A stretch of DNA of 64,000 bases from Escherichia phage HMD-9. The stretch is from sequence record PV287714.1. One strand, given 5' to 3'. Each line of letters opens with the position of its first letter. The stretch's first letter is position 1. The position numbers and the translations under genes were made by a program. Under the pieces are notes generated by a model, which was given only the letters and a program-made list of their open reading frames with translations, did no database searches and was not told the origin of the DNA. Below, one piece after another: positions 2,401-31,530 of the stretch.

Positions 2401-2435
2401 TACAGTGCATTCTAAAGGCCTGTTTCGACAGGCCA

Positions 2436-8352: not shown

Positions 8353-8367
8353 TCTTTGACGATTTAA

Positions 8368-8395
8368 GGGACCTTCGGGTCCCTTTAGTTGTTTT
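8368..8395 (+). terminator. rho-independent terminator after gene 23
   Basis: GGGACC-TTCG-GGTCCC hairpin followed by T-rich tract. Confidence 0.7.
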
Positions 8396-11302: not shown

Positions 11303-11330
11303 ACGAAGAAAGGGGCCGAAGCCCCTTACG
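11303..11330 (-). terminator. terminator after hoc
   Basis: GGGGCTTCGGCCCC hairpin followed on minus strand by TTTCTTCGTTTT. Confidence 0.6.
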
Positions 11331-22893: not shown

Positions 22894-23858
22894 TGTATTC
22901 TTTAGAGGAATTTAATAATCAAGCAATAAACGCAGATTTCCAACGTAATAATATGTTTAGCTGCGTTTTTGCGACAACTCCATCAACTAAAAGCTCTTCG
23001 TTGATAAGTTCAATTAGCAACTTTTCTTATAATAACTTGGGCCTAAATTCAAATTGGTTAGGATTAACTCAAGGTGATATTAATCAGGGAATTACCACGC
23101 TAATTACAGCTGGCACACAAAAACTAATAAGAAAATCAGGAGTCAGTAAATATCTTATTGGTGCCATGAGTCAACGTACTGTCCAGAGTTTATTAGGCTC
23201 ATTTACGGTTGGTACATATTTAATTGACTTCTTTAACATGGCATATAACTCATCTGGATTGATGATATATTCTGTAAAAATGCCAGAGAATAGATTATCC
23301 TATGAAACTGACTGGAACTATAATTCTCCTAATATTCGTATAACTGGGAGAGAATTAGACCCTTTGGTTATTTCATTTAGAATGGATTCAGAAGCTTGTA
23401 ACTATCGTGCAATGCAAGACTGGGTTAACTCCGTTCAAGACCCAGTAACTGGATTACGTGCTTTGCCACAAGATGTCGAGGCAGATATTCAGGTTAATCT
23501 TCATTCTCGCAATGGATTGCCTCATACTGCGGTGATGTTCACCGGATGCATTCCAATATCAGTGAGCGCTCCTGAGCTATCATATGATGGAGATAACCAA
23601 ATAACTACATTTGATGTTACTTTTGCGTACAGAGTGATGCAGGCTGGAGCAGTTGATAGGCAAGCTGCGCTTGAATGGCTTGAATCTGCTGCTATAAATG
23701 GTATTCAAAGCGTTCTCGGAAATAGTGGAGGTGTTACTGGACTATCTAATTCGCTTTCACGACTTAGTAGATTAGGAGGAACTGCGGGAAGCATTTCAAA
23801 CATTAATACTATGACGGGAATTGTCAACTCGCAAAGTAAAATATTAGGAGCAATATAA
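22893..23858 (+). CDS. 54: baseplate-tail tube initiator gp54
   Basis: 321-aa ORF; size/position as T4 gp54. Confidence 0.9.
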   Translation: MYSLEEFNNQAINADFQRNNMFSCVFATTPSTKSSSLISSISNFSYNNLGLNSNWLGLTQGDINQGITTLITAGTQKLIRKSGVSKYLIGAMSQRTVQSLLGSFTVGTYLIDFFNMAYNSSGLMIYSVKMPENRLSYETDWNYNSPNIRITGRELDPLVISFRMDSEACNYRAMQDWVNSVQDPVTGLRALPQDVEADIQVNLHSRNGLPHTAVMFTGCIPISVSAPELSYDGDNQITTFDVTFAYRVMQAGAVDRQAALEWLESAAINGIQSVLGNSGGVTGLSNSLSRLSRLGGTAGSISNINTMTGIVNSQSKILGAI

Positions 23859-23863
23859 CAATG

Positions 23864-23894
23864 GGGACCTTTCGGTCCCCATATTTTTATTTAC
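23864..23894 (+). terminator. rho-independent terminator after gene 54
   Basis: GGGGACC-TTTC-GGTCCCC hairpin then ATATTTTTATTT. Confidence 0.7.
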
Positions 23895-24177
23895 GGAATG
23901 AAATAAAAGCAGCAACTGAAGCAACTAAACTGTCTTCAATATAAACTTCAATTTTTACCGGAGCTTCTGACTCAAATTTACCTGTTACTACACCTTGGAA
24001 AATACTTTCAGTCTGTTCTGGCTTTGAAAAATTTTCAGAAGGAAAAATTCCGAACTTTTTATCTGTTCCAAAAATTTTGATAAATTCATCATAAACTGCT
24101 TCATTAAAAGCATTATCAGCAGGAATAACGCCTTCAACTACAAGTTCTTGACCTAAAAAGCGCAAAGAAGATTTCAT
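23887..24177 (-). CDS. hypothetical early protein (alt.-3 position)
   Basis: 96-aa ORF with GAGGAA RBS, immediately downstream of a GTTTAC-type early promoter. Confidence 0.6.
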   Translation of the reverse strand: MKSSLRFLGQELVVEGVIPADNAFNEAVYDEFIKIFGTDKKFGIFPSENFSKPEQTESIFQGVVTGKFESEAPVKIEVYIEDSLVASVAAFISFRK

Positions 24178-24208
24178 TTTGTGTTCCTCATGTTATGTCA
24201 GTAAGATT

Positions 24209-24238
24209 ACTATAACACAACATGAGGGACTTGTAAAC
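24209..24238 (-). promoter_or_regulatory. sigma70-type early promoter (GTTTAC -35, TATAGT -10)
   Basis: Minus strand GTTTAC-N18-TATAGT; near-identical copy at 37737-37766. Confidence 0.6.
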
Positions 24239-24595
24239 TACATTTTGAACTTTTTAGTACGCGTAATAGGCATGCGTCGATTTTATACTGTTTCATTGTT
24301 TGAAGAGCAGTATCAAAAACAGCATTAATGACACCAATTGGATTTCCACCCATGTTTTTAAGCTTAACTAATGATAGTTTCTCATTAACACCTATCATTA
24401 CGATATGCATCATTTTATCGCCCGGCTTAACGTTTTATTCGTATCACCGCCAGAGGTGTATGTACAAAATCTAAATCCAGGAAGCACACTTTCTTCACCG
24501 GCTTGAATAGCAAAAATTTGAGGTATTTTATGCTTAGGATTTAAGTTAACAACCGGCGCCGAAGCGCCGTCAAATAATTCTGTAATAAGTTCCAT
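24210..24595 (-). pseudogene. decayed partial duplicate of the alt 5' region (two frame-shifted ORFs of 61 and 67 codons)
   Basis: Fragment products MELITELFD...CTYTSGGDTN and MMHIV...QYKIDACLLRVLKS align to Alt residues 1-55 and 64-120; frame breaks in an A-run; nucleotide identity also visible (aattctgtaataagttccat at both 5' ends). Confidence 0.6.
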
Positions 24596-24598
24596 GAT

Positions 24599-26647
24599 TT
24601 ATCCTTGAACAAACTTGTAAGGCATGTTTGCAATATCTATGCAAGACGCAATAATTCCAAGAGATGATTCTGCTTTCTGTTTAACATTTGATGAAACAAA
24701 CGATGCAAAGTCAACTCTATCTTCTATATCACCTGTCATTGTAACCAATTCACCAGTTTCCATTAAACGGTCACCGTCATAAATTACCGATTCGGTGAGT
24801 TCTTCTGTGGTCATAACTTCAGCTTGAATAAGCTTGTTGTTAGTTCTAATTGTTCCATCGTTGTAAGATGCATCAGTTATTTTATTAACTTTGACCATTA
24901 ATCCACGTGGCAAAATGACTTCCATTTCATTTGAAGGCGCTAAACTTCCACCGGGTAAAACAACATTGACCTTATCAGCCCCAGTAATAACCCATCCAAT
25001 TCCAACTAAATTATCGCTAGAATTTACAAGTCCTTCATCAGTTTTATCAATAGAAACACTTAAACGCTTTTCGTCTGGTAAAACACCCACAGATGAATCA
25101 GTCATCCAAGTACCAAAAATATTTGGATATAATGATGTTGACACAAAGTTTCTAAAATAAAAAACTCGATTTTTTACCATTGCTTCGTATATTGAAGGTA
25201 ACATTCGTTGTGAACGATACAAAGTAATACCTTTTGGTAATCGTTCACCATTTTTAAAGGCTGAATCTAAATTATCAATGGCTTGTTCTATTTCAGGTGC
25301 TGTTAAAATACTTGTACGCTCATCTGGATTATATAATCCCAAAAGAGCATTATTCATGTCTACATATCCTGAACCTACATATTCACGAATTCCGCGTTTT
25401 TGCGCTGGTGTGTATTTAGATGAATCTTTATTTTCGACTATAGGATGTAATGACCATCCAGCGGTAAGAGCATATCCACGTAATTCTCTTCGAATAATCT
25501 TTGTTTTTATTGCATTCCAAGAATTTTGTACTAACTCATTTGCAGCATCTTGGTTTAAATGCGAATGTCTGTTAATATTTCTTTCAAACCAAGCACCTTT
25601 ATATTTTTCTAAAGTATCATCGACGATAGAAGCAATAGTTTCTAAAGTTTTTATTGAAGTAATAGATTCTTTTCGTAATTTTTCTAAAGCTTTATTTTTT
25701 ATTTCTGCATTAATAATGGATTCTTTATCTTCAGGAATTATAGAAGCTTCTCTGAATGCCATCCCAGCTGTAACACTGCTAAGAGCATTCTCTAATGCAA
25801 ATCCTGAAGTAGAAATAACAGTTAATTCGTTAGCATCAGAAATTAAAGGCGCGTCGGCGGGTTTATTTAATTCTGCTGCTGAAGCCTCAAATTTTTGAAA
25901 CATTGGTGTTTCAAATCTAGAAGATTCCAATGACTGACTTTGTGCAATTGCTCTACGGGAAATTTTAACTTTAACAATAACAGCTTGGTCAGAACGCTTA
26001 TCATTTTCTTGCGCAATAGATGCAGCAATTGCCTCATTTTTAGTTACTTGAGCTCCAGTATCTTTATTGATATAAACATCACCGACCTTCGATTCAACTT
26101 TAGTAAAGAGCTCGGTGCTAATTTCCGGAACTCCTGGAATGTCTTCTAGTGATACATTTTTGCGATGTATAAGAATATATGCATACTTTTTATCGTAATC
26201 CCAGAGTTCCTTAAGAAGGACGTATCTGCCGCCTGAACGACTGCGGATAAGTCTATCAGCAATAACTTGAATTTGTCGAGCTTGACCAGCAGTTTTAGAC
26301 TTAAGAATACGAAGCATGCAGGCATCAATTTTATACTGACGCATCGTTTGCATCGCAACAGTAAAAACTGAATTGATGTAATTAATTGGGCTTGGACCGA
26401 GACCTTTTAATTTAGCAATTGAACCTTTAGCAGTTAATGTAAAAGGAACGATGTGCATCATTTTATCGCCCATCTTTAAATCACGGTTAGTATCACCTCC
26501 AGATGTATAAGTACATAAACGAAAGCCTGGTTGTTCTATTGCGTCATCAACATGAACTGAAAAAATTTGTGGTATTTTCTTCTTTGGATACAAATTTGTA
26601 ATCGGAAGAGTAGTATTTTCGTCAAATAATTCTGTAATAAGTTCCAT
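24599..26647 (-). CDS. alt: Alt ADP-ribosyltransferase (packaged, modifies host RNA polymerase)
   Basis: 683-codon ORF beginning ATGATG; second ATG gives 682 aa, the T4 Alt length as recalled; position between gene 54 side and gene 30. Confidence 0.88.
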   Translation of the reverse strand: MELITELFDENTTLPITNLYPKKKIPQIFSVHVDDAIEQPGFRLCTYTSGGDTNRDLKMGDKMMHIVPFTLTAKGSIAKLKGLGPSPINYINSVFTVAMQTMRQYKIDACMLRILKSKTAGQARQIQVIADRLIRSRSGGRYVLLKELWDYDKKYAYILIHRKNVSLEDIPGVPEISTELFTKVESKVGDVYINKDTGAQVTKNEAIAASIAQENDKRSDQAVIVKVKISRRAIAQSQSLESSRFETPMFQKFEASAAELNKPADAPLISDANELTVISTSGFALENALSSVTAGMAFREASIIPEDKESIINAEIKNKALEKLRKESITSIKTLETIASIVDDTLEKYKGAWFERNINRHSHLNQDAANELVQNSWNAIKTKIIRRELRGYALTAGWSLHPIVENKDSSKYTPAQKRGIREYVGSGYVDMNNALLGLYNPDERTSILTAPEIEQAIDNLDSAFKNGERLPKGITLYRSQRMLPSIYEAMVKNRVFYFRNFVSTSLYPNIFGTWMTDSSVGVLPDEKRLSVSIDKTDEGLVNSSDNLVGIGWVITGADKVNVVLPGGSLAPSNEMEVILPRGLMVKVNKITDASYNDGTIRTNNKLIQAEVMTTEELTESVIYDGDRLMETGELVTMTGDIEDRVDFASFVSSNVKQKAESSLGIIASCIDIANMPYKFVQG

Positions 26648-26679
26648 CATATCCTCTCTAGTGTTTATTCTATTTATAA

Positions 26680-26701
26680 AATTAAAGGCCCGAAGGCCTT
26701 T
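26680..26701 (-). terminator. terminator between gene 30 cluster and alt
   Basis: GGCC-TTCG-GGCC hairpin then TTTAATTTTAT on minus strand. Confidence 0.5.
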
Positions 26702-26888
26702 AATAATCTAATGGTAAGAGAGTACGATATATTTCAAACTTTGGCCCTTTTTCATAGGCATCAAATGTTTCTGAAAATTTATTATAAGCATATGCATCTA
26801 CAAATTCGAGAATGATTTGTGATACAGAAGTAGAAACATCTCCACCTTCTTTTTGAGCAACGACAATTGTTTCTAAGTAAGCTTTCAT
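26700..26888 (-). CDS. hypothetical small protein
   Basis: 62-aa ORF; start overlaps gene 30 stop (ATGA). Confidence 0.5.
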   Translation of the reverse strand: MKAYLETIVVAQKEGGDVSTSVSQIILEFVDAYAYNKFSETFDAYEKGPKFEIYRTLLPLDY

Positions 26889-28348
26889 AGACCAGTTACC
26901 TCATGAAAATCACCAAATACATCCTCGAATGTATTAGCTTTAGTTTTATCTTCACGTAAACGAATCGCAATCGGAAGAAATAATTTAACGTAATCAGTGC
27001 GGCCATCAGATTTTAACCAACCATTGCATTCGCACTCTAGAATTTTTCCAATATAATAATTTTGGTTTTCCATAATGCGAGTACGGTCAAGTTCATGCGA
27101 TTTTACACCGGCTTTATCTTTTAAGCCTGAACCAGCATTTACTTTAATTTTTCCACACTCTGACTCAAGAATAAATCCACCTGCTTTAGTAGGGTCTTTA
27201 CGGTGAGGATAAATTCCTACAATTTTTAAATCAACATCAATTACTTCTTTAAATTTATAGAGATTTTTTGAACGAGCATTTTCCCATAATCCATCGATAT
27301 TTTTGAGAATAATACCTTCAAGACCTTGGTCAATATACTTTTTATAAATTACCTTAGCTTCATCTAGGTTATTTACTACCTGGTTTTCAATTAAAATTAC
27401 TTTATCATAGCCTGATGTCATTTGTTCTAGTTTAGAAAAACGTACATCATATTTCAAACGAAATGCAGGAAGACCGTATATTTCTACCAACGGGACATAA
27501 TCCCAGACCTGAAACTTCATGCATTGAGCTTCTTTTTCAGAAATGGTTCCCTTTAAAGATTTATTGGCGATGCCATTAGATGCAGTACGTGATTCAGCTA
27601 CTTCTGTGAAGTCTTTAACTTTGCTGTTTCCAGGATGAGCATCAAAAAGAAAATCTAGGCCTTCTGGCTCCTTTTTAACTTGCTCGTGGTATACCAATTC
27701 GCCATCAATTAACACACCTTCTGGATGAATCTGGCGGGCTTCAGCAGTCATTTTGATTAACTCTTCCTTAAGAAGATCTAATCCTAGATATTCATTACCA
27801 GCTCGTGATAAAAGACGAACATCATCTAATTCATCACCTCGGACTTCAGCAAAACACCGAGCTCCATCTGCTTTTAACTGTGCAAAGGCTGGAAACTTAA
27901 TATTCTTATTAATGCCTTTTTCATCATAAGAACTTGCCAGCATTTGAGGTTGTTCAGGAATTAAACCTGGCCAAACTTTGTTTGCAATAGATACTGAAGC
28001 ACCGCATTCAAGGTCTCGCATCATAACTCGACGCAAAACTTCAACATCATCCTTTTTACCATCAGTGATATATCCAGTCAATTCCTCAATTGCAGCATTT
28101 CCAGTCAATTTCCGAGTAGCTAATGTGAATTCAATGAAGTCAAGCATATCGGTAAGAGTCAACATTCCAAAACTCTGGGTAGTAATACCAGGTTTAGGCC
28201 ATTTCTTGATATAATACTGCAACCCACGAGAATAAGTCAGACGATATACTCGTTTAAGCAATTCATTATCTTTATTCTTTTCAAGAATTGCTTGCTTCTG
28301 CTTAGTTGAACCAATAGATGCTATTTCGTTCAGAATTTTAAGAATCAT
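26885..28348 (-). CDS. 30: ATP-dependent DNA ligase
   Basis: 487-aa ORF with adenylation motif KADG (AQLKADGARC); size as T4 gp30. Confidence 0.95.
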   Translation of the reverse strand: MILKILNEIASIGSTKQKQAILEKNKDNELLKRVYRLTYSRGLQYYIKKWPKPGITTQSFGMLTLTDMLDFIEFTLATRKLTGNAAIEELTGYITDGKKDDVEVLRRVMMRDLECGASVSIANKVWPGLIPEQPQMLASSYDEKGINKNIKFPAFAQLKADGARCFAEVRGDELDDVRLLSRAGNEYLGLDLLKEELIKMTAEARQIHPEGVLIDGELVYHEQVKKEPEGLDFLFDAHPGNSKVKDFTEVAESRTASNGIANKSLKGTISEKEAQCMKFQVWDYVPLVEIYGLPAFRLKYDVRFSKLEQMTSGYDKVILIENQVVNNLDEAKVIYKKYIDQGLEGIILKNIDGLWENARSKNLYKFKEVIDVDLKIVGIYPHRKDPTKAGGFILESECGKIKVNAGSGLKDKAGVKSHELDRTRIMENQNYYIGKILECECNGWLKSDGRTDYVKLFLPIAIRLREDKTKANTFEDVFGDFHEVTGL

Positions 28349-30612: not shown

Positions 30613-30633
30613 AGTATTTTCCTCAGTAAGGGG

Positions 30634-30662
30634 CCGAAGCCCCTCATTTTATTTTAAATATC
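30634..30662 (+). terminator. plus-strand-oriented terminator inside the minus-strand early region
   Basis: GGGGC-CGAA-GCCCC hairpin followed by CATTTTATTTT on the plus strand only. Confidence 0.4.
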
Positions 30663-31500: not shown

Positions 31501-31525
31501 TAAAAAAGGACTCCCGAAGGAGTCC
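31501..31525 (-). terminator. rho-independent terminator
   Basis: GGACTCC-TTCG-GGAGTCC hairpin followed by TTTTTTA on minus strand. Confidence 0.65.
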
Positions 31526-31530
31526 TCAAC

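Follow-up and report, generated by a model that had tools for sequence, protein, structure and literature searches.

Between alt and alt.-3 of Escherichia phage HMD-9, two short reading frames resemble pieces of the beginning of alt, and we were interested in where they come from and whether they still have a function. The window analysed here is a stretch of 64,000 nt from this phage (PV287714.1). The 3 kb around the two frames showed 99.8% identity to Escherichia phages Pu-Krd-SF4 and 236Ecol005PP and 96.8% nucleotide identity to T4, indicating that the window belongs to Tequatrovirus. On the minus strand, gene 30 (ligase) is followed by alt.1, alt, the two small ORFs and alt.-3, with gene 54 on the plus strand. 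The genes concerned are listed below, where 'second copy' denotes a full-length second alt-type gene found at this position in related phages.

24599..26647, minus strand: alt, encoding the packaged Alt ADP-ribosyltransferase, 682 aa (ORF list; 96.8% nucleotide identity to the T4 alt region; annotated as alt)
24410..24595, minus strand: ORF alt.-1, 61 aa, second-copy codons 1-54 plus 7 out-of-frame codons (ORF list, T4 annotation)
24210..24413, minus strand: ORF alt.-2, 67 aa, second-copy codons 62-116 plus 12 out-of-frame codons (ORF list, T4 annotation)
23887..24177, minus strand: alt.-3, 96 aa, DUF5498, an intact neighbour outside the pseudogene (Pfam PF17602, E = 1.4e-64; T4 annotation)

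Both short ORFs, which a preliminary description of this DNA had placed directly downstream of alt on the minus strand, are present. The ORF alt.-1 starts 3 nt past the alt stop and has kept MELITE, the N-terminus typical of Alt; the start of alt.-2 overlaps the alt.-1 stop (ATGA), and its last 12 codons run through an old gene end and the promoter of alt.-3. Local nucleotide alignment of the region with the 5' end of alt gave a score of 122, compared to 20.8 ± 2.5 for shuffled sequences (n = 200, maximum score 32), confirming the proposed relationship. Codon-guided alignment over 116 codons led to identities of 61% for amino acids (to Alt residues 1-117) and 65.5% for nucleotides; split by codon position, nucleotide identity was 69% (first), 78% (second) and 50% (third). 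As third positions are near saturation, the divergence must be old and does not reflect the decay of a recent partial copy; the nucleotide divergence of about 35% from alt is that of an old paralogue that evolved under protein-level selection. The shared 27-mer reported before was recovered at 24569-24595 and 26621-26647, a few bases away from its first placement, and is part of the longest perfect repeat between the two regions; the next longest measures 18 nt.

24568..24595, minus strand: 28-nt run identical to the start of alt (26620-26647) (longest-common-substring scan)

The alt product itself matches Pfam PF03496 (ADPrib_exo_Tox, E = 2.4e-33), and alt is the functional paralogue that the region resembles. 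A Pfam search of the two short ORFs gave no match.

The origin of the region became apparent from its counterparts in RB14, T2 and G10400, where the same position, between the same flanking genes, is occupied by a full-length second alt-type gene of 2058 nt encoding 685 aa. This second paralogue shares 42% identity with Alt over its whole length and only 8-24% in its middle region; it begins with MELITELFD, the same N-terminus as Alt. As its homology to Alt extends over the full length, it is implausible that the intact gene of T2, T6 and RB14 was formed by inserting sequence at a later time into a short ancestral ORF. The intact copy carries PF03496 at aa 416-620 with the Arg, S-T-S and E-x-E motifs kept. 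By tblastn, about 403 phage records, T2 and T6 among them, were found to contain a full-length second copy with at least 90% identity; about 80% of Tequatrovirus records have the gene intact, as do T2, T6 and RB14. Identity of the region in the window to the two ends of the intact gene from RB14, T2 and G10400 amounts to 96-98.7%. It is thus, with a probability of about 0.9, the stump of a once full-length second alt paralogue, lost by a deletion and then a frameshift. It is the orthologue of the gene named 'alt.-2' in RB14 (ACP30838, 685 aa), which is annotated as 'Alt-like RNA polymerase ADP-ribosyltransferase' and, unlike the stump, keeps the PF03496 ART domain. Four elements of the stump could be assigned:

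24249..24595, minus strand: 5' portion kept from the second paralogue, codons 1-116 after frame repair; pseudogene (identity to intact copies)
24433..24436, minus strand: frameshift site, A4 compared to A5 in intact copies, -1 slippage (alignment to RB14, T2 and G10400)
24249..24257, minus strand: deletion junction, the single kept copy of the 9-bp repeat CTAAAAAGT (overlapping BLAST alignments, repeat positions)
24238..24248, minus strand: last 11 nt of the second copy including the original TAG stop (24238-24240), now out of frame (alignment)

The retained 5' part corresponds to T4 alt.-1 and most of alt.-2 and shows 96-97.4% identity to nt 1-348 of the RB14, T2 and G10400 genes. Alignment to these genes splits into two blocks, the first covering the 3' end of alt and nt 1-348 of the second copy (95-97% identity) and the second comprising its final 20 nt with the stop codon, as well as the alt.-3 region (97-99% identity). 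Exactly 9 nt, CTAAAAAGT, are common to both blocks, and the intact 2058-nt gene contains this 9-mer twice, at nt 340 and at nt 2039. As only one copy is left, 1,699 bp were lost between direct repeats, and nt 349-2047 of the second copy are absent from the window. The deletion may be explained by slipped mispairing or illegitimate recombination at this microhomology. Since aa 416-620 of the intact protein lie in the deleted segment, the catalytic ART domain is absent. The only gap within the first block is one A missing from the A5 run, so that the frame break suspected earlier in an A-run could be located in AATAAAACG (24431-24439). Re-insertion of one A led to a continuous ORF of 128 codons, the first 115 residues of which correspond to residues 1-115 of the intact second-copy protein (about 98% identity). 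With the deletion and the frameshift combined, no catalytic function is possible for the stump. The fold of the frameshift region (24410-24470) was no more stable than shuffled sequences (z = +0.6) and thus gave no sign of a programmed-frameshift structure.

The same arrangement is found in T4, where alt.-1 and alt.-2 (T4T HM137666, T4Tp203 and T4Tp202; UniProt P39495 and P39494) lie at the same position between alt and alt.-3, with the same lengths of 61 and 67 aa, the same A4 frameshift and the same deletion junction. Over 251 nt spanning both lesions the window is 97.6% identical to T4, and T4T is identical to the window at both lesion sites, although with 96.8% identity over 3 kb the window is not T4 itself. 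The pseudogene origin of the two ORFs is already known: the T4T GenBank note describes alt.-1 plus alt.-2 as a deletion plus a further frame shift in a second alt copy, and they were listed as a paralogous duplication of alt by Nolan et al. 2006 (PMC1524935). No published statement was found on the exact junction, the order of events, independent second hits, a chimera in ECML-134 (see below) or functional edges, and these additions are incremental.

To compare the lesions, the window and ten further deletion carriers were aligned with eight intact copies. All 11 carriers share the same junction. A linked TTC>TTA substitution 6 nt from the junction was present in all ten carriers of one alignment and in none of the eight intact copies, which together with the common junction argues for a single origin of the deletion. 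The deletion therefore probably arose once, with the reservation that this rests on one linked SNP and leaves some room for recurrence at the same microhomology. The second hits differ between the carriers. The window and T4 show the A4 frameshift as their only second hit, SG1 only a GAA>TAA stop at codon 6, and JEP6, FJ1, CE1, F26 and ACG-C40 both lesions, while N2 and SYGD1 have neither and keep the A5 run and a 128-aa ORF. Additionally, a further -1 breaks alt.-2 in CE1, and F1 has a 9-nt deletion (3 codons). The codon-6 stop was detected in 7 of the 11 sampled carriers. The existence of all four combinations of the two commonest lesions indicates that the deletion preceded the frameshift, and also points either to recombination events inside the stump or to repeated slippage of the A-run. 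Among codons 1-116, variant codons of the intact copies comprised 33 synonymous, 2 non-synonymous and 0 disabling changes, compared to 3 synonymous, 5 non-synonymous and 1 nonsense change plus 3 indels private to the carriers (Fisher p = 0.0003). Judged from these alignments, the second hits of the carriers together indicate relaxed constraint. Substitutions private to the window are few, e.g. Leu82>Met. With an intact orthologue, disabling lesions and independent further lesions, the stump represents a truncated (non-processed) pseudogene. Of the reading given in the preliminary description, the alt-type origin, the decay and the frame break in the A-run were therefore retained, but not the partial tandem duplication.

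The following course of events would account for these observations. A T4-like (Tequatrovirus) ancestor would have carried two tandem, anciently diverged alt-family genes, each encoding an ADP-ribosyltransferase of about 685 aa with the N-terminus MELITELFD. In the lineage of T4 and the window, the 1,699-bp deletion between the CTAAAAAGT repeats would have removed codons 117-680 of the downstream copy and with them the whole catalytic domain, while the alt.-3 promoter, located immediately beyond the former stop, would have been spared. Later loss of one A from the A5 run would then have split the leftover 128-codon ORF into alt.-1 and alt.-2. Since that time the interior of the stump (about 24258-24553) has probably drifted neutrally, transcribed only as a passenger on read-through RNA from alt.

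The two edges of the stump may be different. A complementary explanation, which would not replace the pseudogene reading and to which we give somewhat less than an even chance, is that the stump persists via cis elements at its edges only. At the 5' edge this would be a UUCG hairpin acting as 3' stabiliser or partial terminator of the alt mRNA, and at the 3' edge the alt.-3 promoter with a hairpin masking the Shine-Dalgarno (SD) sequence of alt.-3. At the 5' edge, the GC-rich hairpin seen previously was confirmed as CGGCGC-UUCG-GCGCCG.

24554..24569, minus strand: C(UUCG)G hairpin with a 6-bp G+C stem, 30 nt past the alt stop (fold; identical in intact copies)

A count of UUCG-loop hairpins with stems of 5 bp or more gave 11 for the whole window compared to 0.58 expected from shuffles, an enrichment of about 19-fold; the majority follow a stop codon at a distance of 0-20 nt. 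Examples are found at 2417-2434(+), 8366-8385(+), 11310-11327(-), 26681-26704(-), 30629-30644(-) and 31507-31526(-); several are followed immediately by the late-promoter motif TATAAATA. C(UUCG)G hairpins in T4 intercistronic regions were reportedly described by Tuerk et al. in 1988. The stump hairpin resembles these in having a UUCG loop closed by C-G, a G+C stem and a position shortly past a stop codon, but differs in that, in two-copy phages, it lies inside a coding region, at second-copy codons 10-15. It is possibly a 3'-end element of the alt message. On the other hand, it has no U-tract and was not called in a scan for intrinsic terminators, and its z-score in the local context is a modest -2.1. 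A scan of 23800-24800 against Rfam (E <= 1) gave only IRES_APC and MicX as chance-level matches far below gathering scores.

The sequence around this hairpin is unusually uniform. Across 19 phages, the first 72 nt of the stump (24524-24595, minus strand) showed 1 polymorphic column in 72, compared to 49 in 276 downstream. Regarding third positions, 0 of 24 were polymorphic in these 72 nt and 32 of 92 downstream (p = 2e-4). The low diversity persists in lineages with a dead ORF, and the 3' end of alt immediately upstream is polymorphic. Not all of the stump therefore drifts freely, and the near-invariant stretch hints at a putative cis role for the alt message. An RNA element could underlie the low diversity, but so could a sweep in the recent past or gene conversion involving alt.

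At the 3' edge, the best promoter-like site in 23800-26900 (10/12 matches plus TG) begins right at the old TAG stop, and the deletion ended 11 nt short of it.

24209..24237, minus strand: predicted sigma-70/T4-early-type promoter for alt.-3, (G)TTTACA-17-TG-TATAGT (promoter scan)
24186..24228, minus strand: stable hairpin pairing the alt.-3 Shine-Dalgarno sequence (GAGG) (RNA fold, -23.7 kcal/mol, z = -4.0)

An independent annotation in the record of phage Lutter likewise places a promoter here. Both the RNA and the protein of T4 alt.-3 belong to the early class (PMC9697503), in agreement with such a promoter. The hairpin pairs the SD region of alt.-3 (24186-24196) with a left arm at 24212-24228. 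As this arm lies upstream of the predicted early transcription start (near 24202), only the long read-through RNA from alt, and not the short early RNA, would mask the SD, which would make masking of alt.-3 dependent on read-through. SD masking in a long but not in a short early RNA is a known regulatory theme in T4. Transcripts from the following motif would continue into the stump:

26671..26678, minus strand: T4 late-promoter motif TATAAATA upstream of alt (pattern search)

In T4, alt is late in both RNA and protein (PMC9697503). The control region of alt.-3 (24186-24237) sits within the tail of the alt.-2 ORF. The hairpin at the 5' edge and the promoter with the SD hairpin at the 3' edge are probably the only functional parts of the stump, which leaves the retention of the interior of about 300 nt unexplained. 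Concerning alt.-3 itself, T4 mutants escaping the CmdTAC defence map to this gene, the escape mutations being C-terminal extensions of the 96-aa Alt.-3 (PMC11618068); the alt.-3 ORF in the window has the normal 96 aa.

The distribution of the deletion raises the question whether loss of the second gene was neutral. A 118-nt probe spanning the junction was fully covered in 90 of 499 matching records (about 18%), these 90 including many re-sequenced T4 strains, and was split in the remainder. The stump adjoins both 2049-nt and 2094-nt alleles of alt, indicating that it was moved between backgrounds by recombination. At about 18% of the records it has been spread by recombination rather than purged, and this counts against a simple pseudogene reading. 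The loss of a second packaged Alt-type ADP-ribosyltransferase might have been adaptive, with one allele spread by recombination, although we regard this as unlikely. If true, the driver would be evasion of a defence sensing or triggered by the injected enzyme or the regaining of headful packaging space, and the stump would mark a selective sweep. Deletion-carrying genomes were longer, with a median of 169.1 kb compared to 167.1 kb for genomes with an intact second copy (Mann-Whitney p = 0.0015, in a test that ignores relatedness); this difference of about 2 kb could reflect headful-packaging pressure.

A gene length was lost at the same locus in a second way. ECML-134 (JX128259, 120741-122801) and the near-identical SCS4 carry a single alt-type gene of 2061 nt, the product of which corresponds to Alt for the first ~150 residues (100%) and to the second copy for the rest (96-100%). 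The switch occurs within 24 nt over which the two paralogues do not differ, TACGATAAAAAGTATGCATATATT, and the gene is a natural product of unequal crossover between them, found in this one lineage only. Like the stump, ECML-134 lost one alt gene-length via short identical repeats, but by a homologous crossover that led to an in-frame, full-length hybrid enzyme, whereas the microhomology deletion left a dead gene. The 28-nt and 18-nt runs shared by alt and the stump are comparable to these 24 nt, so that a 2,052-bp deletion of alt is plausible as a mechanism. Alt is dispensable (PMC9026906). Synthetic probes were designed for the two products expected from the 28-nt repeat, the deletion and the duplication, and detected neither among about 500 Tequatrovirus records; the suggestion that alt could be deleted or amplified through the repeats is thus sound in principle, as illustrated by ECML-134, with no product seen at the 28-nt repeat.

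Much less probable is that the stump encodes functional micro-proteins, Alt.-1 using its MELITE propeptide for entry into the prohead or competing with Alt for packaging; equally improbable is the related proposal that Alt.-2 is produced by termination-reinitiation at the ATGA overlap. Translation of both ORFs is possible given a good RBS with a start 3 nt after the alt stop and the ATGA overlap: the RBS described earlier as overlapping the alt stop is kept in AAGGATAAATCATG at 24593-24606, with AAGGA 7 nt before the ATG. An uninterrupted 128-aa ORF is available in N2 and SYGD1. A short N-terminal propeptide of Alt is removed by gp21, which cuts after Glu, and 10-residue N-terminal capsid targeting sequences as in IPIII suffice for packaging (PMC9026906). 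Time-resolved omics of T4 detected RNA of alt.-1 and alt.-2 ('middle' class) but not the proteins, even though Alt.-3 with 96 aa was detected early, and Alt late, in the same data (PMC9697503 Table S2). Proteomics, however, readily overlooks small proteins. The codon-6 stop in 7 of 11 carriers, the broken alt.-2 of CE1, the three codons missing in F1 and the non-synonymous excess among carrier-private changes nevertheless speak against such products, as does the out-of-frame or promoter-derived sequence that makes up the C-terminal 7 residues of Alt.-1 and 12 residues of Alt.-2. The truncated peptide that might be made from the kept RBS and start thus finds no counterpart in T4 proteomics and would be stopped at codon 6 in other lineages. 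A search for a MotA-type middle promoter that might explain the 'middle' RNA class led to one weak candidate only, inside alt. This MotA-box-like site at 25611-25636 (minus strand; ATTGCTTCT, 11-nt spacer, TACTTT) lies about 1 kb upstream of the stump and is a possible but unconvincing source of the alt.-1/alt.-2 RNA.

A tandem duplication of only the 5' ~390 bp of alt, followed by decay to about 65% identity and a frameshift, would fit the position directly downstream of alt and the alignment to Alt residues 1-116 only, but is refuted by the 96-99% identity to a 685-aa paralogue of about 400 genomes including its 3' terminus and flank, and also contradicted by a divergence concentrated at third positions that reflects long evolution as a functional gene and not neutral decay, and by a junction carrying a 9-bp microhomology deletion.

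As alt.-1 and alt.-2 derive from one second alt paralogue, these 'hypothetical proteins' should be flagged as one pseudogene in annotations. For phage engineering, insertions into the interior (about 24258-24553) would probably be neutral, provided that both edges are left intact. A second full-length ADP-ribosyltransferase of the Alt type is encoded by most Tequatroviruses, T2 and T6 among them, but not by the model phage T4. We found no functional study of this apparently uncharacterised enzyme, which T2, T6 and most relatives inject as a second one of the Alt type. Regarding alt itself, an in-frame ATG at 26648-26650 (minus strand) directly precedes the annotated start and would give an alternative product of 683 aa beginning with MMELITE, while the T4 annotation begins Alt at MELITE.
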